From IMG/VR virus record IMGVR_UViG_3300046170_000256: a stretch of 57,015 bases of DNA. One strand, written 5' to 3'. Positions 1 through 39,452 of this stretch are shown piece by piece. Below the pieces are notes generated by a model. The model made no database searches. It was not told where the DNA came from and was given only the letters and a program-made list of their open reading frames with translations. Every line of letters begins with the position of its first letter. Positions within the stretch are counted from its first letter, which is position 1. The translations under genes were made by a program, and so were the position numbers. This DNA comes from a virus.

Positions 1-310
1 TCTCGGATAAGGAGAGAGTTCTGAGCAAGCTGAGGGCGTGGACTGAATCGGCTGAGCAGGGGGATAGCAATAAGATCAGAGCGGCTGAGTTGCTCGGGAA
101 GTCAGTCGGCCTGTTCCGCGATGTAGTCGAGACCAGTGAGAGCAAGTCTAGCGACGAGCTGTTGTCGGATTTGGAAGCAATGCTGGAACAGGTTAGTGCT
201 GACCAGTCAGACGCTGAGCCTTTTTCCGACGATGCGCCCGACGATCCCAGCATCCTGCACTGACCCCCACCCCCCCCTGACGCTGACGGGTACCCGCGTT
301 CTGTATACAT
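1..310. repeat. Left copy of exact 310-bp terminal direct repeat (last 263 nt of terS plus 47 nt downstream)
   Basis: 1-310 reads identically to 56706-57015 (tctcggataaggagagag...cgcgttctgtatacat). The repeat ends on palindrome TGTATACA (302-309). Confidence 0.9.
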
Positions 311-345
311 AGTGTTTCACTCAGGAAATTACATAATTTTCAGTC

Positions 346-369
346 CTGTCACACTGTCACACTGTCACG
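346..369 (+). repeat. Three tandem 8-mers CTGTCACA-CTGTCACA-CTGTCACG
   Basis: Read directly. Lies 36 nt beyond the terminal repeat, in the 400-nt gap downstream of terS. Confidence 0.85.
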
Positions 370-550
370 CAGGGGGTTTTGCTCTGGGAAACTGTTGTTT
401 TTCGGCACCCCCCATAGTATTTTTCAAAAAAATCAGAGCTTTTTCGTAAGTCATTGATTTAGATAGTGATAATAATTACAAAAAAACTAAAAAAACCTTG
501 TAAAACTGTAGACATGTGGCTGTCAAGGGGGTAGTATCTGTACAATCCAG

Positions 551-593
551 AGGATTATTGTATCTAGGATAGTCATACCTAGAACAATCCTAG
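551..593. promoter_or_regulatory. Imperfect inverted repeat enclosing a CTAGGATAGTCAT motif (564-576)
   Basis: AGGATTATTGTATCTAGG ... CCTAGAACAATCCT. The arms are near reverse complements and the motif resembles the 46797-46897 cluster. Confidence 0.45.
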
Positions 594-637
594 TCTTTTT
601 CTTCCTGATTTTGTTTATTTAGTTTAATTCCTGTTAA

Positions 638-650
638 CTAGGACTGTCAT
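638..650 (+). promoter_or_regulatory. CTAGGACTGTCAT motif copy 16 nt upstream of the first late gene
   Basis: Exact 13-mer also present at 46812-46824. Confidence 0.5.
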
Positions 651-665
651 AGGGCAGAAATTGTT

Positions 666-2333
666 ATGAACAAGTTTATGCAAGAGGTGGTTGATTCCAG
701 ATACAGGAATCTATCCCATGATTGGTACGCTTCTGGCATGGATCAGTTCCAAGGTCCGTTCAATCTTACAAATGAGTGGGATATATCGGATAATGTAGAC
801 GTATACGGCAATCCTGCGTGGATGAACGCGGCGACGGACTATGTAAATAACATTACCGGTAAAAACTCAATAGCTCCTTGGGCAGATACCTACCAGCAAG
901 ACAGGATTGGCACACTCAACTACGTTAAAAACCCAGAGTACAATGCCTTCCTTGGTGGAAGAGGGAATTTACAGTCAAGCGTTCCCGGTTATACAGATGA
1001 CAGCATTGCTGGGTACTTCAAGGAAGCATTTTCTGATCCCGCCCAGATTAAGAATCGTAGTGATGCTATTCGTAATCTTAGAGTATGGAATGAAAACGCA
1101 GGTAATGGTGGCGTAGGGCTTAACAAAGCCACTGACCCAATGACCAAGCAATATTTTGATGAGCTAAGGTTAAACGAGCTATATGGGCTGGACGGCAGTA
1201 GGTTTAATCCGCCCCCACCGGAACCACCCCAACAGGCACCACCACAAGGAGCACCACCAGTGGCAGGATTAGACGGCAGTAACAACGCCATAAGCAAGTT
1301 CGGCACACCTCTAGGGGGTGGCCTAGACTCGAATGAGCAACTTTTTCCTAGAGATGGAAGGCTCCCCGCAGGTATGGACCAGCGATTTCTTGTTGACCCC
1401 ACAATTGATGCTTATGGCAACCCAATGGGGCCGAGAACAGGCGGGGTCCGAAGACCGCCAACCCTAATGAGACCCGGCTTTGGCGGCGGCTTTGGCGGCG
1501 GGATTGGTAACTTGTTTAATCAACTGGCATACATGCCAGAGGAAAACTTTGCTCGTTCGATGGACAGGTATCGGCGTTTTAACGACCAGTACGGAAGTTC
1601 GATGGGTCCAAGAAACCCGATGAATTCCATGAACATGTTTAATCAGTTTGGTAGGATGGACGATGCCCAGTTTGACATGGGCATGGATAGGTATCAGCAA
1701 TACCGAGATATGTTTAATCCGACAGTAAGACCAGATCCACGGCCACAAATTCCCCCGTTCAGCCCCGGATCGCCTGACGATACGGTGAGCCTTCCGCCGG
1801 GGATGAATCCAAACAAGCCACCCAGCATTCCTCGTCCGGTGCCTGACGTTTTTCCTGCGAGCTTCAATCCCGGCAGTGCGACTCTGGACGGGCAAACGGG
1901 TGCAGTCTTGTCAGATCAAATGACAACCACCACGGAATATGGTGACGTGCGAGACCAGAGCGGCAACGTCGTAAGGCCAGCAGTTCCACGGCAAAATCCT
2001 TATCAGAGTAACCCAAACCAAGCACCCCAGTACTTCGGTCAGTTTGGGCCTAACCGCAACCCATACGCTACAGGCTATGGCATGGGTTACCAGCCCTCTT
2101 ATCAGCCCCCTTATATGCCACAGCAGGGGCGGCTAAGCTATAACCAAGGCCCATCAAAAGGATCGCCGGGGCCGGGGATGTCATACATGTCCTCTCCAGC
2201 AGGTCAGGATGGGTATGGGGCGTTTGGTGGTGGCCAAGGCTATTACAGTCCATCTCGCCCTAGCGCCCCAGCGGGCGCAAGCAAGGGCGGCACTGGCGGA
2301 TCTTCGCCTAGCGGAAAAGGCGGTAGCGCCTAA
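666..2333 (+). CDS. Low-complexity P/Q/G/N/M/Y-rich protein (about 180-aa ordinary N-domain, about 370-aa prion-like tail)
   Basis: 555-aa ORF. Contains FGGGFGGG, repeated MDRY(R/Q), and [GS]Y[GS]-type tracts (GYGMGYQPSYQPPYMPQQ...GQGYYSPS). Sits between terS and terL. Confidence 0.7.
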   Translation: MNKFMQEVVDSRYRNLSHDWYASGMDQFQGPFNLTNEWDISDNVDVYGNPAWMNAATDYVNNITGKNSIAPWADTYQQDRIGTLNYVKNPEYNAFLGGRGNLQSSVPGYTDDSIAGYFKEAFSDPAQIKNRSDAIRNLRVWNENAGNGGVGLNKATDPMTKQYFDELRLNELYGLDGSRFNPPPPEPPQQAPPQGAPPVAGLDGSNNAISKFGTPLGGGLDSNEQLFPRDGRLPAGMDQRFLVDPTIDAYGNPMGPRTGGVRRPPTLMRPGFGGGFGGGIGNLFNQLAYMPEENFARSMDRYRRFNDQYGSSMGPRNPMNSMNMFNQFGRMDDAQFDMGMDRYQQYRDMFNPTVRPDPRPQIPPFSPGSPDDTVSLPPGMNPNKPPSIPRPVPDVFPASFNPGSATLDGQTGAVLSDQMTTTTEYGDVRDQSGNVVRPAVPRQNPYQSNPNQAPQYFGQFGPNRNPYATGYGMGYQPSYQPPYMPQQGRLSYNQGPSKGSPGPGMSYMSSPAGQDGYGAFGGGQGYYSPSRPSAPAGASKGGTGGSSPSGKGGSA

Positions 2334-2344
2334 CAGGACGTGAA

Positions 2345-3847
2345 ATGGAGTTAACGCCAGAAGTTGCTAAGCGACTAAAAGGCGCAAGCCCGGAAACAAA
2401 ACTTCGGGCCGCAGAGATAATCGATCAGATAGCAACAGCCAAGAGGGTCGAGTCAGCACAAGACTCCTTCATGGGCTTTGTTAACTACATGTGGCCAGCC
2501 TTTATTGAGGGGCGGCATCATAAGATTATGGCTGAAGCCTTTGAAAGAATTGCCAGAGGCGAGCTAAAGCGGTTGATCATCAACATGCCACCTCGACACA
2601 CCAAGTCTGAGTTTGCATCTTACTTGTTACCTGCATGGTTTCTTGGTCAATACCCCGGCAAGAAAATCATTCAGACGGCACACACTGCTGAGTTGTCAGT
2701 AGGGTTTGGTCGTAAGGTGAGAAACCTTGTTGACTCAGAAGATTACAAGTCGGTATTTCCAGACCTTCAGTTAAGGTCAGACTCAAAGGCGGCGGGACGC
2801 TGGAGCACCAACAAGAATGGTGAGTACTTCGCTATTGGTGTTGGCGGTGCTGTAACGGGTAAAGGTGCCGACCTATTAATTATTGATGACCCTCACTCGG
2901 AGCAAGAAGGACAGTCCGGGGATGCCGGGGTTTTTGATAGAACTTACGAGTGGTACACATCTGGTCCTCGACAGCGACTGCAACCGGGCGGCGCTATCGT
3001 AGTAGTGATGACTCGCTGGCACATGCGAGACCTAACCGGAAAGATTATTAAGTCTTCCGCTCAGCGCGCAGGTAGCGACGAGTGGGAGGTCATAGAGTTT
3101 CCAGCAATCATGCCATCGGGTAATCCCTTGTGGCCTGAGTTCTGGAGTCAATCAGAGCTAGAGGCTCTGCGTAGTGAACTACCCGCTCCCAAGTGGAGCG
3201 CACAGTATCAGCAAAACCCAACGTCCGAAGAGGGCGCGCTAATCAAACGAGAATGGTGGCGAGTGTGGGACATGGATCGTCCTCCCCCATGCGAATTTAT
3301 TATCCAATCTTGGGATACTGCGTTCTTAAAGACGCAACGCTCGGACTATTCTGCATGCACAACGTGGGGCGTGTTTTACACACCCGACGACGAAGGGGTT
3401 ACTAAACCCAACATCATCCTATTGGATGCTTATAAAGAACGTCTTGAGTTCCCAGAACTGAAGCGCAAAGCCTATGAGCTGTGGGCTGAAATGCAACCAG
3501 ACGCATTCATAGTGGAAGCTAAAGCGGCAGGGATGCCACTCATTTTTGAACTGCGGGCAATGGGTATTCCTGTTGCGGAGTACACGCCGTCCCGTGGTAA
3601 TGACAAGATAGCAAGAGTAAACGCTGTTGCTGACTTGTTTGCGTCAGGCTTTGTCTGGGCGCCACAAACTAGATTCGCGGAAGAGACCATCCAAGAGTTT
3701 GCATCGTTCCCCTCTGGAGAACATGACGACTTGGTGGATTCTTCCACGCAAGCCTTGCTGAGATTCCGTCAAGGTGGCTTTCTGTCGCTACACACAGACG
3801 AGCCAGATGAGCCGGTAGACTACACGAGGCGTGGAGATTACTACTGA
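2345..3847 (+). CDS. terL: Terminase large subunit
   Basis: 500 aa. ATPase motifs PPRHTKSE (Walker A-like) and GADLLIIDDPH (Walker B). C-terminal RNaseH-like nuclease region (SWDTA..., DDLVDS). AGGA SD 6 nt upstream. Confidence 0.85.
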   Translation: MELTPEVAKRLKGASPETKLRAAEIIDQIATAKRVESAQDSFMGFVNYMWPAFIEGRHHKIMAEAFERIARGELKRLIINMPPRHTKSEFASYLLPAWFLGQYPGKKIIQTAHTAELSVGFGRKVRNLVDSEDYKSVFPDLQLRSDSKAAGRWSTNKNGEYFAIGVGGAVTGKGADLLIIDDPHSEQEGQSGDAGVFDRTYEWYTSGPRQRLQPGGAIVVVMTRWHMRDLTGKIIKSSAQRAGSDEWEVIEFPAIMPSGNPLWPEFWSQSELEALRSELPAPKWSAQYQQNPTSEEGALIKREWWRVWDMDRPPPCEFIIQSWDTAFLKTQRSDYSACTTWGVFYTPDDEGVTKPNIILLDAYKERLEFPELKRKAYELWAEMQPDAFIVEAKAAGMPLIFELRAMGIPVAEYTPSRGNDKIARVNAVADLFASGFVWAPQTRFAEETIQEFASFPSGEHDDLVDSSTQALLRFRQGGFLSLHTDEPDEPVDYTRRGDYY

Positions 3848-4572
3848 TGGATCATAATTGGCACGATAAAGTGGCCAATATAGAGCACTGGCTGAGACCG
3901 ATCTTTAGGCGACACTCAAGCTTAGGTGGGCCTGCGTTCTTTAATCCTCAGAGTTTCCCAGCAAGCAAGGCATTGTCAGACGGATACAGCGTTATTAGGG
4001 CTGAGTTTGATCGTGCTAGAGTTAGAATGCAGGACTTTCCGCTGTTTCAAGATATTAGTCCTGAGCAAAAAAGCATTTCTAACGATGACAAGTGGAAGAT
4101 GTTTTTCCTAAAGTCGAACAATATTAGGTTTGACAGGAACTGTGAGCAGTTTCCCGAGACCATGAAGATAGTGGATAGCGACAAGAACATTGTCTCTGCC
4201 TACTTCTCAATACTAGAATCTAACAAAATGCTTACGCCGCATGAAGGCCCGTGGTCTGGAGTGCTTAGAATGCACCTTGGCGTAGACATCCCTACCGATG
4301 GTAAGGGGTGCACCCTCTCTGTGATGGGGGAAGAGTATCAGTGGCAGGATGGCGAGGTAGTTGTCTTTGATGACACCTACACCCACTTCGCAATCAACCT
4401 TACGGATCACCCGAGGGTTGTTTTGTTTATGGATTATATGAGGCCGTTGCCTTGGCCGCTCCATGCTCTTAACAAGTTTTTTATATTTATTGGCCGGTTT
4501 TTACCGTACTATAAAGTTCCGCTTGCCCGTCATAGGGAATGGGAGAAGCGGTTCTACGGGGAGGCTGGCTGA
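3847..4572 (+). CDS. Aspartyl/asparaginyl beta-hydroxylase-like 2OG-Fe(II) oxygenase
   Basis: HEGPWSGVLRMHLGVDIP...W.DGEVVVFDDTYTHFA...RVVLFMDY matches the ASPH/LpxO family core. TGATG coupling to terL. Confidence 0.7.
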   Translation: MDHNWHDKVANIEHWLRPIFRRHSSLGGPAFFNPQSFPASKALSDGYSVIRAEFDRARVRMQDFPLFQDISPEQKSISNDDKWKMFFLKSNNIRFDRNCEQFPETMKIVDSDKNIVSAYFSILESNKMLTPHEGPWSGVLRMHLGVDIPTDGKGCTLSVMGEEYQWQDGEVVVFDDTYTHFAINLTDHPRVVLFMDYMRPLPWPLHALNKFFIFIGRFLPYYKVPLARHREWEKRFYGEAG

Positions 4573-5249
4573 TGGCTTTTTTGCAAAGTAACATCCCACA
4601 CTTCAAGTGCTGGGTGAGACGCGAGTACACACACAACCACCATAAATATCATGGTGAGTTTTTGCATGCAATGGCGATTGCAGTGACGGCAATGCCAAAC
4701 AGATGCTTGAGCTTTCAGGTTATCTTTACTGGCGCTGAAACCTACGACTCTGAAGAGCCGAATGTGCACGGCGGGGCGATGTGGGCAAGAATGCCCGTTA
4801 CCGCTTTAGTGGCTGATACCCCTTTCGAGGAATGGCCTGAGCCTATGCCGGTGTATGCGGCACAGCCTTGGGACTGCTCATCAAGAGAGCACAGCGTGTA
4901 TGTGCTGGACAGGGCGACTCCTTGTCCTTGGATGGCGAAGATAGACGATCAACTCTTCCCAGCTAAGTACATGTTCACGGTAGATTACACAGACAGCGAA
5001 ATTGCGGATGACCCCGCCCAGCACAAGCAAAGTCATGTGATGGAGCTACTGGATGCTGGTCCGTGGACAGGCAACATAGTGGCGCTTCCCAACAATCGGG
5101 TAAGAGTCACGCACCCGGCTTGGTTTGAAACCGGCAGTGGGGCACCAGACTTTAGGCCATCTCAGCACATTCATTACTCTAAGTCCGACTTGGACTACAC
5201 GCTGGATGCGAATCGAGTATTCAACAACATATATGCAGGTGACGAATGA
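4572..5249 (+). CDS. Hypothetical protein
   Basis: ORF 4539-5249. Start moved to the ATG at 4572, which overlaps the upstream TGA (ATGA-type coupling). Confidence 0.6.
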   Translation: MAFLQSNIPHFKCWVRREYTHNHHKYHGEFLHAMAIAVTAMPNRCLSFQVIFTGAETYDSEEPNVHGGAMWARMPVTALVADTPFEEWPEPMPVYAAQPWDCSSREHSVYVLDRATPCPWMAKIDDQLFPAKYMFTVDYTDSEIADDPAQHKQSHVMELLDAGPWTGNIVALPNNRVRVTHPAWFETGSGAPDFRPSQHIHYSKSDLDYTLDANRVFNNIYAGDE

Positions 5250-5497
5250 ACAAAATGTCTAAGATGTACGCGAAAGGCGGCAAGCTAGCGATGGTTAAGA
5301 AGGGCGATCAAATGGTTCCCTTCTATGCGGCTGACGGTGAAGGCAAGATGAAGGCCGGCGGAATGACCCCCAAGACAAAAGGCTACTTTAAGGGCGGCAA
5401 AACCAAGGGTTATTCAAAGGGCGGCAAGACGAGCATGAAGACTCGGGGTTGTGGCGCGGCAACTAAAGGCACAATGCACTCTAAGAAGATGGGCTAA
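5246..5497 (+). CDS. Small Lys/Gly-rich basic protein
   Basis: 83 aa with KGGKTKGY-type repeats, tightly coupled between neighbours. Confidence 0.6.
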   Translation: MNKMSKMYAKGGKLAMVKKGDQMVPFYAADGEGKMKAGGMTPKTKGYFKGGKTKGYSKGGKTSMKTRGCGAATKGTMHSKKMG

Positions 5498-8129: not shown

Positions 8130-8192
8130 TTTCGTTGCGTAACGCAATGCAAGGCGACTCCGAACGCCAGTTTTCGGTGCAAGGATGTGAAC

Positions 8193-8546
8193 ATGACGGA
8201 AGAGCCAGAGAAGGCCAAACAGCTTCCAGAACCCAAAGGTTATAAATTACTTATCGCTCTGCCCGCCCCCGACGAAAAAACGGAAGGCGGCATCATCAAG
8301 GCGTATGAAACACTCAAGGTGGAAGAGGTTGGTTCCATTTGCGGTTTTGTGCTCAAGGTGGGAGCAGATGCTTACAAGGACGAAAAGCGATTTCCCAATG
8401 GCCCCTATTGTCAAGAGGGTGACTGGGTATTGATGCGGTCCTATAGCGGCACTAGATTCAAGGTGCATGGTAAGGAGTTTCGACTAATCAACGATGACAG
8501 CGTAGAGGCTGTAGTTGACGACCCACGGGGGATTGAAAAAGCATGA
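8193..8546 (+). CDS. GroES/Cpn10-like co-chaperonin
   Basis: KLLIALP..EKTEGGII...GDWVLMRSYSGTRFKVHGKEFRLINDDSVEAVV follows the GroES layout. ATG 8193 has AAGGA 7 nt upstream. Confidence 0.6.
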   Translation: MTEEPEKAKQLPEPKGYKLLIALPAPDEKTEGGIIKAYETLKVEEVGSICGFVLKVGADAYKDEKRFPNGPYCQEGDWVLMRSYSGTRFKVHGKEFRLINDDSVEAVVDDPRGIEKA

Positions 8547-24872: not shown

Positions 24873-27503
24873 ATGAACAGATACCCCGCTAAACCTATGA
24901 TGGACCAAATGGCACAGCATGGCCGATACGGTGACAGCATGCTTGTGCACATGAACCCAATCGAGGTCGCAGGAATTGCATCTCTGTCCCCCACAGGGAG
25001 CCTGACAACCAACCCAGTCACGGGACAGCCAGAGGCGTTCTTGCCATTCCTTGCCCCCGCACTGGGCATGCTGGGCGGTCAGCTCGGTCTGAGCGCATTA
25101 AGCTCAGCGGCGCTGACAGGTATCGGCACGGCGGCAGTGACGGGCGATCTCAAGCGGGGATTGCTGTCTGGTCTGACAGCCGGTCTGGGTAGCGGTCTTG
25201 GTGAGGGTATCGGTGGTTTGTTTGATAGTGCTCAGGAAGGGGTAAATGTTGCGACCACGAGTGCCGAGGCTCTTGGCACTGGCGCAGAGACTCTTGGTGC
25301 GGGTGCAGGGGGAGTGGATCTCTCTGGACTGGCCACCGAAAACGTCACCTCTAACTTAGCTCAAGCGTTTAACCCCAGTGCTGTTACCCCCGGCCTCACT
25401 GACTACACAGCGCAAGCCGCCGAAGCCGCATCTGGAGCCATGCAGGTTGCACCAGAGGCCGCAGGCTACATCTCAGAAGCTCCCGGCATGCTTGGGGATT
25501 TTGATACAGCAGTGGGCGGCTCTGGCATAGGGCAGACTGCACAAGGCTTTGTGGACAAGCTAGGCACGACCGGCCAATTGATGGGCATTGGTATTGGCTC
25601 AGGCCAGATGGCTCAGATGGACACGATGGAGGAGTTTGAGAAGCAACAGCGTCGGCTCCTAGAGGAGTCGGAGGCTAGCCGAGGAGAAGCATACGGCGAC
25701 CTGCAATCAGCATACGCAATGGCTCAGCCCGGAATAGCTCCCGGCTTTAGCCCTTACCGGTCACAAATGAGCCAGCGTACTTATGACTATGCGGCTCCCG
25801 GTATGGCGGCAGGGGGCGCCACCAGAACAGGTATGAGTCGCGCCCAGTGGAAAGCGTTATACGACATGCTACTAAAGCAGGACTACCCATTGCCACCGTT
25901 TGAGGAGTGGTATCAAAATGCGGCAGGCGATTCTGCCGAAGGCGCTGATGGTGATAGCGGAGAGGGCGATTCTCAAGCGCCGTCAGTGGAAGACAAGTTT
26001 GAAGTGCTTGATGAAAACGGCATGGATATTTTAGCGCCCGGATATTACGGGATGAAGAACTTTGGGACCGCGCAAACAGATACCGACGAGTACAAGGCTC
26101 TGGAAGCGGCTAAGCGAGGAGACCCACTAACCCCTGAGCAACAGAGCCTACTTGAAGGCTATTACAGAAGAAGGGAGGGGTTCCGAGCACAGCGAGAAAG
26201 AGCCATTGCTGAGGCACAGGGTACTGACTCGGCGGTCGATCCGCTGGCTAACTACCTGCAAGGCTCTGGTCTTTTCGGCTATACAACCGGCAACATCGGG
26301 GGCATAGACCCAGTTTCTATTCAAGCTGGACTGCGAGAGGACTACAAGATTGCGGCGCCTACCGACTATATGTCTGGGTTTGAGCCTGAGTTCCAATACT
26401 TTCAAGCAGACCCTAATGCACCCTTTATTCCTAGTCGAGCATATCGGCCAACTCAAGAAGGCGTTGACGATACCGGTACTTATTTTGATCCGATCATTGA
26501 CAGGGGAAGCTACTTAGAGCAATTACAAGACTACTACCGCACACTGGCAAGCTACGGTATGGGCGGAGATAACGCACCCGAAGAGCCTGTAGATGAGGAG
26601 CCGCCGGTTCAAGACCCCGGAACTGGCCCGACCACACCGGGAACGCCGACAACGCCTAGTGATCCGGTTAACCCCGGTACAGGCACTCCACCCGGAAGCA
26701 ACCCCTCTAGCCCGCCCTACAATCCACCCTACAATCCGTCCGCGCCAAGCGGTCCCTCGTTCGGCGGAGGAGGCAACTCTGGAGGTCATGCCGCTGGTGA
26801 CTATTACAAGATTGAAAACGGGAAGGTCGTTCGTTATACAATCAACAGTATCGTTGGGGTAGATCCAGAAGAGTACACCGACGAGGAATATTACGGGTCT
26901 CCGATAAGCGGATACTACATTGTAGATCAGACCACGGTGGGTGATGCAGGGGATGACACCTATGCTATTCAAGGCTCCTCCGGTCAATACGGAGAAGGTA
27001 TCTACTACAAGAACGGCAAGCTTTACAGCCACGCAAGTGAAGAGACACTAGCCAACATAAGGGCGGCAGGTAACACCCCTTACGGTATTGACCCGGCGCT
27101 TATGACCGACCTTGAGCGAGCGCATCATAGGATGCGATATCAGGCAGACCCGTCTGATGGATTCGTCGGCACTTCTGATTACAACTCATTCGGCGGTAGC
27201 CCTCAGCGCGATAACTCTGGTGCCTATGGCGCCGGTAACACTGTGACAGACGCAATAGCAGAGGGTATTGGTAATCCATCCGTGACGCTAGATAATAGCG
27301 AGGTTACTGAAAAGCAAGATGCGGGCGGGGTACACCCCATAGTTGCCGCGCTGTATGGCGATCCCACCAAGGGAACTGTCGTTGACACGCCCTATGAGGG
27401 TAGCTTTCAGTATTTTCGGGACAAGCAAAAGGAACAAGGACAGTGCCGCAACCTCAGCGAATCAGGTGCAGGCCACTCCGCAAGCCCCAGACATAGGCGT
27501 TAA
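24873..27503 (+). CDS. Internal-virion-type protein with Gly/Ala and Pro-rich tracts
   Basis: 876 aa. N-terminal GDSMLVHMNPIEVAGI...NPVTGQPEAFLPF and a PGTGPTTPGTPTTPSDP tract. Ends AGG CGT TAA. Confidence 0.55.
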   Translation: MNRYPAKPMMDQMAQHGRYGDSMLVHMNPIEVAGIASLSPTGSLTTNPVTGQPEAFLPFLAPALGMLGGQLGLSALSSAALTGIGTAAVTGDLKRGLLSGLTAGLGSGLGEGIGGLFDSAQEGVNVATTSAEALGTGAETLGAGAGGVDLSGLATENVTSNLAQAFNPSAVTPGLTDYTAQAAEAASGAMQVAPEAAGYISEAPGMLGDFDTAVGGSGIGQTAQGFVDKLGTTGQLMGIGIGSGQMAQMDTMEEFEKQQRRLLEESEASRGEAYGDLQSAYAMAQPGIAPGFSPYRSQMSQRTYDYAAPGMAAGGATRTGMSRAQWKALYDMLLKQDYPLPPFEEWYQNAAGDSAEGADGDSGEGDSQAPSVEDKFEVLDENGMDILAPGYYGMKNFGTAQTDTDEYKALEAAKRGDPLTPEQQSLLEGYYRRREGFRAQRERAIAEAQGTDSAVDPLANYLQGSGLFGYTTGNIGGIDPVSIQAGLREDYKIAAPTDYMSGFEPEFQYFQADPNAPFIPSRAYRPTQEGVDDTGTYFDPIIDRGSYLEQLQDYYRTLASYGMGGDNAPEEPVDEEPPVQDPGTGPTTPGTPTTPSDPVNPGTGTPPGSNPSSPPYNPPYNPSAPSGPSFGGGGNSGGHAAGDYYKIENGKVVRYTINSIVGVDPEEYTDEEYYGSPISGYYIVDQTTVGDAGDDTYAIQGSSGQYGEGIYYKNGKLYSHASEETLANIRAAGNTPYGIDPALMTDLERAHHRMRYQADPSDGFVGTSDYNSFGGSPQRDNSGAYGAGNTVTDAIAEGIGNPSVTLDNSEVTEKQDAGGVHPIVAALYGDPTKGTVVDTPYEGSFQYFRDKQKEQGQCRNLSESGAGHSASPRHRR

Positions 27504-37700: not shown

Positions 37701-39452
37701 ATGAAGAACGTAGCCCAGCAACGTATCACTCGGGACATGCAGAAGATGGGCATCGCCCGTCAAGTTAGCCTCAAGAAAAAACGCGGGCCAACCGACATTG
37801 AGTTCAAGGTAAACGGCAATCTTGTGCGCTTTGAGCTAGATGACACCCTTATCTACGACTCGATGACCACGCAGGGGGCGGGCTACGTTGAGCAAGCGGC
37901 CACTAAGTATCTCGGCATGCCATCCAACGTACTCCGAGAGCTTATCACCAGAGACCCCGGCTTTATGATAGCCAACATGATGAGAGATACCCTCTCCACA
38001 TGGACCACATCTGGCGCATCGTTCGCCCCTGTCATAGGCACGGTGAAAGGATTAGGCGATGGGATTGAGCGGTTGGAGAAGCTCGGTGTTGTGGGCGGCT
38101 ATGATTTTGCAATAGACAAGAAGGACATCGTTAAGTTCTACGAAGCGGAGAACAAGAGACGCACAGAGTCTATGACTCCACTTAACATGTTCACACGAAT
38201 ATGGGACTGGGCTGGCAACGCAACCACTGCATCCGACGCCTCTACCCGTAACGCTGTATACAATGACGTTTTAGCTAGGACAGGCAGTGAGGCAGAGGCC
38301 GCGTTCCAAGCTATGGAGATTATTAACTTTGCACGAAGAGGCTCTAATCCGTTTGCGCGTGTGCTGACAGCGGCAATACCATTCCTTAACGCACGATTCC
38401 AAGGCTTGGATGTATTTGTACGCTCGGCAACAGGTAACTACACCACGCGCAGGGATGAGCCGGCAAGCGCGGGCCAGCTAAGGCTAGCCTATCGTGGTGC
38501 AATCTTGGTAGGGCTGACATCACTCTACTACTTACTTGTCAGTGATGAAGACTGGTACAACGAGCAAGACGAGCACGTCAGAGAGTTAAACTGGCTGGTA
38601 CCTACTGCCAGCGGTGTGCCTTTTAAATTCCCGATTCCGTTTGAAGTTGGCTTGATATTTAAGACTATCCCAGAGGCGGTACTAGCGAAAAGGTATGGTG
38701 ACCAGTCAAGCAGAGAGCTTAGGCAGACGCTACAACGAGGGCTGGTATCAACGCTGGAGGTAAACCCTCTGGGAATCCAAGCGGTTGCCCCGCTGGTTGA
38801 AGTTGCATTTAATCATAACTCGTTTACTGGACGCCCCATCGTTCCATACTATGTGGATGCAGATGGTGGCATGACCGCAGGCTTGACAGGTGGTGAGTAC
38901 AACACGCAGATGGCCAAAGACTTGGGCGAGAAGTTGAACATTAGCCCCATGAAGATTGATCACATACTCTCTGGTTACACAGGCACCCTTGGCGCTTACG
39001 TTATTTCTGCGGTTGACGCGGCATACCGTCAGGTAGCGGGTGGTGAAGACAAGCGACCCTCCAAGACTGTCTTTGAGTACCCAGTAGTTAAAAGGTTCTT
39101 TGCCCCGAAAGAAGGCTCAGGTCTCAGGACGGATGCGTATGAGCTATACAATGACGTGAAGGAAGTGGTCACTACGGTCAACGCCTTGCAGAAAGCAGGG
39201 CGTGTGGATGAGCTAGAAGCCTACCTGTCAGCGCGGCAACACATGCTTGACTTAAAAGGCCCAGTGTATAACATCAAGCGATCACTTGATCGGCTGAGAG
39301 AAGATAAGCGGGCAATCACTAGGACTGACATGGACCCCGAGGTAAAGGATCGTATGATCGAAGACTTGGACGCTCAAATGAATGAGCACCTAAAGGTTAT
39401 CCCGAGGCTCAAGGAGCTAGCCGACGCTCCATTCTTTCAAGGTACATTCTAG
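31767..39452 (+). CDS. Giant polyvalent virion protein (2561 aa)
   Basis: GTG start. HEILH zincin motif (34173-34187), YYHGT...GHF...DFE ART-like region, VHDYFGH domain, recurring (I/M)(M/F)FSLR linkers, hydrophobic C-terminal third. Confidence 0.7.
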   Translation: MDVSLPNGQLITNVPDDISQKELARIAIDGNLAVESDFGDLFADDTTFLGSVGEAGKRLVGGLATGTARVGTGLAELIPGVDDEAAREVQSDFDAFVADTLGYDPAYDDNYGAQLGGVVGEMGPMVASLFLPGGLPARATQLATMIGPAVSEGGADRAEYEERTGEALSTAERLTAKGADVGLGMLERLGIPTRILKGLPRGFFDTPQANPILRRMESMIASGLQEGVQEVGQGIARDIATLAIYDPDRKIADSVMDDFTLGGGAGAVLDLAIGLAQTPLKGRKGRAPKPIEDMTEEEIADEQRLRANEDAGEQARREGLDATLEAEGAEEVPSDIGEDPIDPTLVDATLPVEEIAGQVVTRLGSRLPVGKVFSVGSLDNQSFAEVDGEQFGPVFDDPVLAQELSNRLTGASQELAKSAQVEYLVENSGIEYTEQQADEVRRLGRSIPSPQERIISAEDANLATGKDIARVINRQQADRGEAESLTFTLEEVRAANRGDLGNLGDVLAAKDADFLAFGAPEQATPTTAPDPTRPRQPALGRQQALQSLSSSFDNPLSSERVMEDLLAQKRIAASIDSEAFRGMVKRIIGKVPSKKNPLSNLSANERRYLYHRIRKLPSFQEQATQIPDFSAKTPDGELVRIARRQIEVEQPSRLAVEAAAFGQTGQLPAQAELNRVEAEAQRTARPIERAEESVPEGQELVPYDLDQSALGQQLRDALKKFGIDDQYATRMVEQVGTAKRDSAGNIYIDPLKNRPVDKDGKAAMVAGSAQAGAKVIQVGLDAVMADVNAGMSYEQAVAKIMNHEILHALRAMDLFTASEYSLLERLSRKYQKPGEGKTYGQWAVDSYGDISAVRTQEEAIAEMISDALTTGVVMDGDVRKPTGKPRSIFNKIINFFKGLVGVAQDNDVASFKELVDKVQSGAVGRRERGVIRTPLYTEVKAKEVAERGITREDIGLETGKRGRPLTARQVINKVRQDLDDAPEVVDESMFSLRLDRAADQGFDTSTVYYHGTASPSIKQFRSRIPNAKGVIAGHFTLNPEFASGFVPLISLKGEAGTVYPVFLRVNNTFDYRNPEMMDAVLQEVAKGRNGGGHKTASDLLRSKVSTFEFTEQEILDSGDLAVEKADAILSRRKGNDKFFARKGQSKLAKRLNFEDLEKLAPFIQAAGFDSYLDFETVGTASRPTDPTGIAVFDASNVKGVFAEYDPTSVPEGAKYEDDIMFSLRRLEGMPEAFDVDGQSVEFGYHQPAVDAARRYAEKAGMGYEPLTQYAPIDQKMASKIAAEYDLMEDAPNDPEVKAAYNAMIDETLAQYEEILRSGLNVQFIKGDDPYGNPRNAILDVINNNRMYVFSTRDGYGMDGITQQDLASNPMLRETPYRTADGDPMLANDVFRVVHDYFGHIKNGVGFRARGEENAWQSHAAMYSTLARRAMTSETRGQNSWVNFGPDAAFNAKANGADTIYADQKVGLLPLWVSEEARQSDPRRSDSSVFQEGLEGAIDASGKLQLSHFSGKRIARTDPKMAGRGADRGRRYAPEGTYFGIVKATEDGYRNEAVVGNVESTFSVDPLLVYPLNTDPYGLVATNPDGNLNWDNTLAALNNAGYIGFRVNDKRIGKVVFVNQPLISDESVAVSSKPITKDTQTKVLSPRQTITPEQADKAVDKNIASIAENVKGVPRFSVKASPDAQYIAQNPEAALEPDEPLFSVRGDIPAVDRLTRGPEREAPNGRVFMDATNTGSLGTILTKLKAGALFRYAALEKYYQKVPELRELQAESSAIAAALFSDRSKGILASAVKYGVPVYRDGLTRVEEFTHDGDTYRGLIGVMSLIYNKDVGDLRKIAQAYAMVKRGDYLSARGQLTPVDAKTKREILAEVESLTDADGYNPVKKWHDTWSAYNEKTIDFLKATGVLNEDTAEVWKKSSYIPFYRTGVSEDALPQVAKSVFGDMTRMKEFVAYQGSEKAVDVGLIESVVLNMSAAVDMGMKNVAQQRITRDMQKMGIARQVSLKKKRGPTDIEFKVNGNLVRFELDDTLIYDSMTTQGAGYVEQAATKYLGMPSNVLRELITRDPGFMIANMMRDTLSTWTTSGASFAPVIGTVKGLGDGIERLEKLGVVGGYDFAIDKKDIVKFYEAENKRRTESMTPLNMFTRIWDWAGNATTASDASTRNAVYNDVLARTGSEAEAAFQAMEIINFARRGSNPFARVLTAAIPFLNARFQGLDVFVRSATGNYTTRRDEPASAGQLRLAYRGAILVGLTSLYYLLVSDEDWYNEQDEHVRELNWLVPTASGVPFKFPIPFEVGLIFKTIPEAVLAKRYGDQSSRELRQTLQRGLVSTLEVNPLGIQAVAPLVEVAFNHNSFTGRPIVPYYVDADGGMTAGLTGGEYNTQMAKDLGEKLNISPMKIDHILSGYTGTLGAYVISAVDAAYRQVAGGEDKRPSKTVFEYPVVKRFFAPKEGSGLRTDAYELYNDVKEVVTTVNALQKAGRVDELEAYLSARQHMLDLKGPVYNIKRSLDRLREDKRAITRTDMDPEVKDRMIEDLDAQMNEHLKVIPRLKELADAPFFQGTF

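Follow-up and report, generated by a model that had tools for sequence, protein, structure and literature searches.

This report concerns an open reading frame (ORF) that encodes a modular, low-complexity protein in a 57,015-nucleotide (nt) stretch of viral DNA (IMG/VR record IMGVR_UViG_3300046170_000256), the whole of which we refer to as the window. The gene lies between those for the two terminase subunits, terS and terL, in a slot that is hypervariable among related phages. It is co-directional with terL, and its stop codon is 11 nt ahead of the terL ATG with an AGGA in between; in relatives the low-complexity gene overlaps or abuts the next genes, and it looks like a late gene that is operon-linked to terL. 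A preliminary description of the window had correctly placed it between terS and terL; that it also opens the late operon, as stated there, is only plausible. The ends of the window repeat each other (1–315 vs. 56700–57015), the contig being a circular or terminally redundant assembly, and because of this overlap the 3′ part of terS reappears at 1–263 (partial ORF 3–263). Coordinates are collected in Table 1.

ORF 666–2333 is a conserved gene under purifying selection, and the preliminary description was right to treat it as real. We found ~40 homologous proteins in independent public metagenomes, including full-length homologs (P0002–P0004) in the same synteny in loci L006–L008 and L025. Relative to L006, the ratio of nonsynonymous to synonymous substitution rates (dN/dS) was 0.31 for the N-terminal domain A, 0.39 for the first linker, 0.18 for the mini-domain, 0.49 for the second linker and 0.15 for the tail; the tail (residues 441–555) is the best-conserved part (94% amino acid identity to L006) and the first linker (residues 179–279) the most divergent (47%). 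Compared to L013 and L014 the synonymous sites are saturated, yet the mini-domain and tail retain 51–66% amino acid identity, which argues for sequence-specific constraint rather than the mere upkeep of a composition. Two antisense ORFs (989–1402 and 1464–1895 on the − strand; 137 and 143 residues) overlap the gene; as homolog conservation and dN/dS back the + frame, these are most likely by-products of biased codon content. Such long antisense ORFs, and the lack of an annotated family, are what could be cited in favor of a spurious ORF or a non-functional remnant with an accidental composition; with homologs from independent metagenomes, dN/dS well below 1 in the + frame, motif conservation that persists at saturated synonymous sites and a confident fold for residues 1–178, we put the likelihood of this at next to nil.

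The AlphaFold2 model of domain A (31-sequence alignment) had a predicted local distance difference test score (pLDDT) of 92.3 and a predicted template modeling score of 0.87, and the domain thus has a confidently predicted all-alpha fold, with no detectable relative in sequence or fold. Foldseek searches with this model gave best E-values of 1.3 in the PDB and 0.68 in BFVD (4.3 in the PDB for the full-length model), and a PDB sequence search with the domain A profile gave nothing below an E-value of 0.1. T4 lysozyme or T4 lysozyme fusions accounted for 11 of the 25 top PDB Foldseek matches of domain A, but their recurrence reflects a single weak match that turns up in numerous PDB entries; a lysozyme or lytic transglycosylase reading of the domain was rejected (E-values of 1.3 or more, template modeling scores of 0.13–0.18, and no Glu invariant among 31 homologs). 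Among 1.84 billion cluster representatives, searching with a profile identified only 14 genuine domain A representatives (E-values of 1e-91 to 1e-22), a 15th match, to a eukaryotic lectin, being spurious, and a scan of one genome per each of 185,579 bacterial and archaeal species identified none. The invariant residues include Y92, N93, F95 and G97, Y109, D111, D112, S113 and I114, K119, and R131, and the family motifs are S-H-D-W-Y, P-W, Y-N-A/P-F-x-G, G-Y-x-D-D-S-I-A-G-W/Y-F-K and M-T-x-x-Y-F-D, with a low-complexity tail after the domain. The window protein belongs to this family by its ~170-residue domain (two alignments).

The remainder of the protein, module B (residues 179–555), consists of a linker, a helical mini-domain, a second linker and a tail. 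The mini-domain (residues 280–350) has a two-fold internal repeat (F..SMDRY..F / QFDMGMDRYQQY) and is kept in L013, L015, L018 and L026 and partly in L027, and the FNPGSATLD..G motif of the second linker is conserved in P0005/6 and P0027–29. The core motif of the tail, RNPYATGYGMGYQ, was identified in the window, L006, L013, L021, L023 and L027, and in degenerate form in L015 and L018. All variants keep (R/Q)NPY[AS][ST]GYGMGYQ...YMPQ.G, all have a tail with 8–12% Tyr and 19–41% Gly that is aliphatic-poor and has aromatics every 4–5 residues, and all carry between two and four KGG motifs, one of them within a GGKGG at the C-terminus. The window protein has each of the features by which we define the module B family, i.e., NPY[AS][ST]GYGMGYQ, GYGAFGGG.GYY, a C-terminal GKGG and a terL-proximal location. 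PDB sequence searches with the profiles of module B and of the mini-domain gave nothing below an E-value of 0.1.

Table 1. Features of the low-complexity gene, its product and the surrounding region of the window.
Feature	Coordinates	Strand	Remarks
Low-complexity gene	666–2333	+	ORF with ATG start, 555 residues, stop codon included; modular protein
Domain A, residues 1–178	666–1199	+	All-alpha globular domain, no known fold family
Pro/Gly-rich disordered linker, residues 179–279	1200–1502	+	pLDDT 30–41; G 20%, P 19%; includes PGFGGGFGGG
Met/Phe-rich helical mini-domain, residues 280–350	1503–1715	+	Four predicted helices, pLDDT 59–82; M 14%, F 10%
Pro-rich disordered linker, residues 351–440	1716–1985	+	pLDDT mostly 34–53; FNPGSATLD..G motif
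Tyr/Gly/Ser/Pro/Gln-rich tail, residues 441–555	1986–2330	+	pLDDT 31–41; ends ...SKGGTGGSSPSGKGGSA
Core motif RNPYATGYGMGYQ, residues 464–476	2055–2093	+	Sole sequence element common to all slot variants
Strain-level cassette with domain A	660–1287	+	L024 has 190 unrelated nt in its place
terS	56462–56968	+	168 residues; PF03592, E-value 2.9e-6, above gathering threshold
ORF-free AT-rich region	264–665		~400 nt upstream of gene; no Rfam match
Sigma-70-like site	509–537		Inside ORF-free region before gene
terL	2345–3847	+	500 residues; phrog_38 (5e-105), PF17289; directly downstream, apparently same operon
Asp/Asn beta-hydroxylase-like gene	3847–4572		PF05118, E-value 9e-43; start overlaps terL stop
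236-residue protein	4539–5249		phrog_3704 (label 'ferredoxin'), E-value 9e-28; 92–99% identity in all relatives, terL-portal interval
K/G-rich 83-residue gene	5246–5497		Very basic, three KGG motifs; just upstream of portal; no family match
GroES/Cpn10-like co-chaperonin gene	8187–8546		Portal-capsid interval; inferred via PF00166 on syntenic 117-residue L006 gene and DSL-LC04/MinM2 annotations

All module B homologs with enough flanking sequence were found directly upstream of terL, or of a basic 83-residue gene followed by terL (slot loci L006–L008, L013, L015–L018, L021, L023 and L024–L027). Identities of these slot-bearing relatives to the window are 84–99.8% for terL, 80% for the portal and 82–99% for the hydroxylase-like gene, and the neighboring genes (terL, the AspH-like gene and a 225-residue gene) are 82–99.8% identical, whereas the slot protein is 31–33% identical in L015 and L018 and matches that of the window in L021 and L023 only over one 40–70-residue segment, at RNPYATGYGMGYQ. 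At least five N-terminal heads are joined to the core: domain A, as in the window; MVSYIGDPSILDEY...; MR[YFI]DP(T/S)... with a short helix after it; a single or double DUF4214-like repeat with a Gln/Ala coiled coil; and MSKGGSMGPDGEY.... Against DUF4214 (PF13946; cut-off of 23.2 bits) the window protein gave no match, and the slot proteins of L023 and L021 scored 21.1 and 14.2 bits, respectively. L024 is 99.8% identical to the window in the terL protein, 98.8% in the hydroxylase-like protein and 98.7% in the upstream non-coding DNA, and its slot protein is without domain A, starting at MSKGGSMGPDGEY; by blastn, window positions 197–659 match L024 1–463 (98.7%) and window positions 1288–2371 match L024 654–1800 (91.2%). 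L025 has domain A joined in frame ahead of this MSKGGSMGPDGEY start. The swap in L024 therefore shows that domain A is a recently exchanged, dispensable cassette and module B the conserved core; the slot between terS and terL is hypervariable, with an exchangeable N-terminal head.

The contents of the slot also differ among relatives by an optional 261–263-residue gene and an optional basic 83-residue gene. The former (phrog_8198) is in the interval from terS to the low-complexity gene (L023, 1972–2763; L027, 3669–4454; L014, 3–377), and its product is 30–40% identical to Synechococcus myovirus proteins, including one with the annotation 'virion protein'; the presence of this gene may point to a cyanobacterial host or to genes exchanged with cyanophages. 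The latter (phrog_4590) is between the low-complexity gene and terL in relatives. We considered the 83-residue genes as a conserved partner and rejected this, the window gene at 5246–5497 and the terL-adjacent 83-residue gene of the relatives being unrelated.

The preliminary description had called the protein prion-like or FUS-like on account of a low-complexity span of ~370 residues, and all of the motifs it quoted are found in the ORF: PGFGGGFGGG (residues 270–279), two MDRY copies (SMDRYRRF and GMDRYQQY), NPMNSMNMFNQF, GQGYYSPS, and GYGMGYQPSYQPPYMPQQ (residues 470–487). Residues 181–555 are 63% Gly, Pro, Gln, Asn, Ser, Tyr and Met (P 15.7, G 15.2, S 8.3, Q 7.2, N 6.4, M 5.1 and Y 5.1%). 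For the whole protein the fraction of these residues is 0.568, against 0.352 ± 0.053 in the 48 other window ORFs (~4 standard deviations), and compared to those ORFs it is the top compositional outlier of the genome. It contains 8% Asn, 7% Asp, 12% Pro and no Cys. Only 12–15-nt micro-repeats in 2–3 copies are present in the DNA of the gene, for which reason long DNA repeats are not the source of the bias, and its G+C content is ordinary.

Combined Gln and Asn content is 10, 20, 10 and 16%, and that of charged residues 16, 24, 17 and 7%, in residues 181–279, 280–350, 351–440 and 441–555, respectively. By this composition count, as distinct from PLAAC scoring, no segment is a canonical Q/N-rich prion-like domain, in which ~60 residues or more would show a strong excess of Gln/Asn and a shortage of charge. 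A FUS-like domain would show densely and regularly spaced [G/S]Y[G/S] triplets among Ser, Tyr, Gly and Gln, almost without charge. Residues 441–555 are 81% Gly/Pro/Gln/Asn/Ser/Tyr/Met, with 10% Tyr (12 residues), 1% Ile/Leu/Val, a net charge of +6, 16% Pro, 7% charged residues and a median aromatic spacing of 4; the [GS]Y[GS]-type tracts noted earlier are present, but with just two strict triplets. A composition like that of the FUS low-complexity domain is confined to these residues, and the rest of module B does not fit. The earlier label thus holds in part, in that the last ~115 residues resemble FUS, and fails as to a canonical Q/N-rich domain (Gln plus Asn 10–20%). Much the same is true of the ~370-residue span: ~300 residues are predicted to be disordered, with a pLDDT of 30–48 over residues 179–279 and 351–555 of the full-length AlphaFold2 model (which rests on a 21-sequence alignment), but residues 280–350 are predicted to form the helical mini-domain. 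FoldIndex was non-discriminating, as it scored the confidently folded domain A as unfolded too.

The other low-complexity tracts mentioned in the preliminary description also exist, MPPQGMPQGMPPQMPQGMPP in ORF 29847–31763 and PAPAPTPAPAPPPAPAPTAP in ORF 27343–28311, the latter tract being preceded by GGPGGKGGS. The ORFs of region 24873–31763 (876, 322, 139, 375 and 638 residues) have low-complexity tracts and encode the next most Gly/Pro/Gln/Asn/Ser/Tyr/Met-rich large proteins of the window. One of them, the 375-residue ORF 28720–29847, matches phrog_4287 ('DNA ejection protein'), and the cluster putatively encodes internal or ejection proteins. This 375-residue ORF begins with MSKGGGS and the L024 slot protein with MSKGGSM; genome-wide enrichment of the KGG motif is weak (9 observed vs. 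5.5 expected).

No family above threshold was identified in Pfam, PHROGs, NCBIfam and PADLOC scans, whether for the ORF, for either of its halves or for six slot variants; for the ORF itself there was no Pfam match at an E-value of 0.1 or less and no PHROG or Pfam match to an ejection or internal virion protein profile. The remark that no gene class is described for this position was supported, the ORF being without a Pfam, PHROG, NCBIfam, PADLOC or PDB family. Neither the ORF nor the L021 variant had a tblastn match in 50,697 phage genomes, profile searches of the terL-flanking ORFs in HTVC027P, 023Pt_psg01, DSL-LC04 and MinM2 identified no homolog, and no paralog was identified within the window. 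Homology to a fiber or collagen-like protein, which had been put forward as the finding that would speak against the preliminary description, was found neither by Foldseek nor in the PDB, Pfam or PHROG searches, and in place of a collagen-like Gly-X-Y periodicity the sole (G..)n run is GFGGGFGGG, of three units. Nor does the protein have a transmembrane segment, signal peptide or lipobox, its maximum 19-residue hydropathy being 0.5 and its N-terminus, MNKFMQEVVDSRYRN, not hydrophobic.

Outside the window clade, domain A was found solely inside structural modules of unrelated podovirus-like contigs. The proteins concerned (P0007–P0059) are 30–65% identical over residues 6–178, share the invariant YNAF.G and GY.DDSIAG.FK, and are composed of domain A, a low-complexity linker and a short conserved C-terminal helix. 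The order of the module, as compiled from five contigs of which no single one carries the whole series, is a capsid or tail fiber gene, the domain A gene, a gene for a 777–869-residue Ser/Thr-rich protein, an SU10-adaptor-like gene (a PF24175 match in L010) and an amidase-like gene. For instance, in L005, which shares nothing with the window besides domain A, the domain A gene follows scaffold, capsid and two fiber-like genes, and in L019 it follows a tail-fiber gene. The 777–869-residue protein is always encoded 3′ of the domain A gene (L005, 11184–13517; L010, 1055–3664; L019, 3648–6074); it has a conserved ~220-residue N-terminus, long poly-Ser/Thr tracts and no known family, and may be a second disordered virion protein that acts with domain A. 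We rejected this protein as a portal, as it is Ser/Thr-rich and unlike the window portal.

In the intergenic DNA between terS and the ORF there is a perfect tandem of CTGTCACA (2.9 copies, 346–368) that could be a regulator-binding or packaging-related site; an Rfam scan of window positions 1–2500 gave no match. Downstream of terL the gene order is hydroxylase-like gene, 236-residue gene, K/G-rich 83-residue gene and portal. Positions 31767–39452 encode a 2561-residue 'polyvalent' protein with an LPD38 match (E-value of 7e-30) and a sub-threshold match to the ART-PolyVal ADP-ribosyltransferase, probably a giant virion-delivered effector. The terL protein is 47–59% identical to those of the Pelagibacter phages HTVC023P and HTVC027P, of phage 023Pt_psg01, of DSL-LC04 and of the MinM2/Pag-Yong1 group, to all of which the window phage is thus distantly related, and a megablast search of 9.6 kb of the window against the 50,697 deposited phage genomes identified no close relative. 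The window phage belongs to a clade of HTVC023P-like podoviruses that are uncultured and at least in part marine, the marine habitat being deduced from one Tara Oceans contig and any cyanobacterial host being likewise a deduction.

At a probability of roughly 40%, we favor the interpretation that the slot gene, expressed late and evolving fast, encodes a virion-associated accessory protein from an unannotated family. We infer virion association from the other homes of domain A, which are tail or virion modules, from the adjacent phrog_8198 gene carried by L014, L023 and L027, a family with one member annotated 'virion protein', and from the similar compositional bias of the putative ejection cluster at 24873–31763. 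In a published survey, predicted phage prion-like domains were mostly in attachment and penetration proteins (PMC5694896). A slot at the host interface is suggested by conserved neighbors around a diverged slot protein with at least five heads and a strain-level presence or absence of domain A. The folded head or the helical mini-domain would dock the protein to a component of the particle, and the disordered tail would act via multivalent weak contacts by aromatic, Gly and Lys residues; the protein could project from the particle as an extended or adhesive appendage, or it could be flexible enough to be packaged along with the DNA and to leave with it by threading through the tail. The exchange of heads and the rapid divergence would in that case be adaptations at the phage-host interface. 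An extended virion appendage had been the second option of the preliminary description, and with domain A in tail or virion modules and a neighbor from a 'virion protein' family the evidence fits this somewhat better than it does the condensate proposed alongside it.

Several points weigh against a virion-associated accessory protein. Our sequence, profile and Foldseek searches identified no homology to a characterized structural, fiber or ejection protein, and the 'virion protein' label in the phrog_8198 family is an annotation only. The argument from neighborhoods concerns domain A, which L024 shows to be dispensable, and not the conserved module B. A divergence of this kind is not specific to a role at the host interface, because any disordered protein diverges fast. 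In addition, tail or ejection genes are not typically placed right before terL and behind a 400-nt gap, a location where a moron or a packaging accessory would fit as well.

The first of these, a moron or other non-structural late accessory gene, might act in lysis timing, envelope interaction, superinfection exclusion or counter-defense, with the disorder and rapid evolution of its product stemming from an arms race against host factors. In T7-like phages, lysis genes are located between the terminase genes. The slot gene is preceded by non-coding DNA of its own that includes a promoter-like site, shows extreme divergence and cassette exchange amid a conserved neighborhood, and has variable companions among relatives (the 261–263-residue and basic 83-residue genes). 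However, the protein is without a transmembrane segment, signal peptide or lipobox, domain A gives no sign of a host origin among the 185,579 species genomes and otherwise resides in structural modules, and PADLOC, which covers host defense systems and not phage counter-defense, gave no match; on balance we find a moron improbable. A packaging accessory is the other possibility, specifically the condensate scaffold of the preliminary description, in which the tail would phase-separate and concentrate terminase, procapsids or DNA while the protein itself stays outside the virion. The constant position between terS and terL in all module B loci, with apparent co-transcription with terL, is consistent with this, as are the evenly spaced tail aromatics (median of 4–5 residues), the few aliphatics, the Lys in GKGG, the predicted disorder, and a composition kept where the sequence is not. 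Yet the syntenic loci are all from close relatives (terL ≥84% identical) and amount to one evolutionary observation rather than many, with little independent weight; the four nearest cultured relatives package their DNA without such a gene beside terL; domain A is found elsewhere far from the terminase, among tail genes; and the strict motifs (RNPYA[ST]GYGMGYQ, GYGAFGGGGYY and GKGG) point to specific partners, not to bulk composition. Nothing thus supports a packaging condensate specifically, and we consider it unlikely.

More improbable still, in our estimate, is that the tail is a self-associating 'sticker' polymer (a gel, condensate or adhesive coat) tied to packaging or particle release and retargeted by its heads, although this, if true, would be the first case of a phage encoding FUS-like material that has a defined function in virion morphogenesis or adhesion. 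Such a polymer might also be hydroxylated in the sub-clade that has the Asp/Asn-hydroxylase-like enzyme. That the slot protein is a substrate of this enzyme, hydroxylated into a cross-linked or adhesive material in the manner of known hydroxylated adhesive proteins, seems very improbable. The PF05118 gene does directly follow terL in the window, L006–L008, L015–L018 and L024, it is absent after terL in the four related cultured phages without a low-complexity gene, and the protein is rich in Asn, Asp and Pro, at the percentages given above, and in Tyr. L021 and L023, however, have a slot protein but lack a hydroxylase in the interval from terL to the following conserved gene, common descent accounts for the co-occurrence, which tracks phylogeny, an EGF-like substrate motif is missing from the protein, and in this phage group 2-oxoglutarate oxygenases commonly occur as auxiliary genes that stand alone (PMC9599517).

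The locus has wider value, as phage low-complexity or 'prion-like' regions have so far been catalogued by composition only and it offers a tractable, sequence-constrained case (dN/dS of 0.15). The natural head-swap variants approximate isogenic mutants, being phages ~99% identical elsewhere in which a whole folded domain is present or absent, and could reveal the role of disordered tails (in host adhesion, ejection or assembly) in abundant aquatic or marine podoviruses. If the tail forms condensates or adhesive material, phase-separation biology would extend to phage morphogenesis; if the protein is merely a flexible virion accessory, this would still be a new hypervariable locus for strain typing and host-range studies.

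Among known systems, computationally predicted prion-like domains have been reported in 1–2% of phage proteins, with the Podoviridae most enriched (Tetz & Tetz 2017, PMC5694896). These and the slot protein are both long, polar, Gly/Tyr/Gln/Asn/Ser-rich and predicted to be disordered; the slot protein differs in its Gln plus Asn content of 10–20%, its charge of 16–24% outside the last 115 residues, its motif-level conservation, its lack of an annotated family and its terminase-flanked position. The likeness to FUS-family domains lies in residues 441–555, with 10% Tyr every ~4–5 residues and near-zero aliphatics, but here there are two strict [GS]Y[GS] triplets, 16% Pro, Lys in GKGG and no RNA-binding domain, and the rest of module B is a Pro/Gly/charged linker and a helical mini-domain; the resemblance is one of composition only, without homology. 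Podovirus internal proteins (P22 gp7/16/20 and T7 gp14–16) are poorly conserved, conformationally flexible and late (PMC8954989), and the putative ejection cluster of the window is likewise rich in low-complexity tracts; the slot protein is without similarity to such proteins, and its gene is upstream of terL rather than in the 24873–39452 cluster. HTVC023P-type pelagiphages, of the same broad phage group, carry genes for curli (the type VIII secretion system), self-assembling repeat-rich fiber proteins (PMC9599517), from which the slot protein differs in position and architecture; it has no curlin repeat by Pfam and no signal peptide, as a CsgA/B subunit would, and there was no CsgG or CsgF among the window ORFs scanned, which covered part of the window. 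The domain A proteins P0007–P0059 are true homologs, each with a low-complexity tail, but their tails are unrelated to module B and their genes are between tail-fiber and adaptor-like genes, not beside the terminase. The slot gene therefore probably encodes a kind of protein that is already known, a low-complexity, virion-associated phage protein; what is new here are two unannotated families, domain A and module B, and an unusual strain-level head-swap polymorphism.

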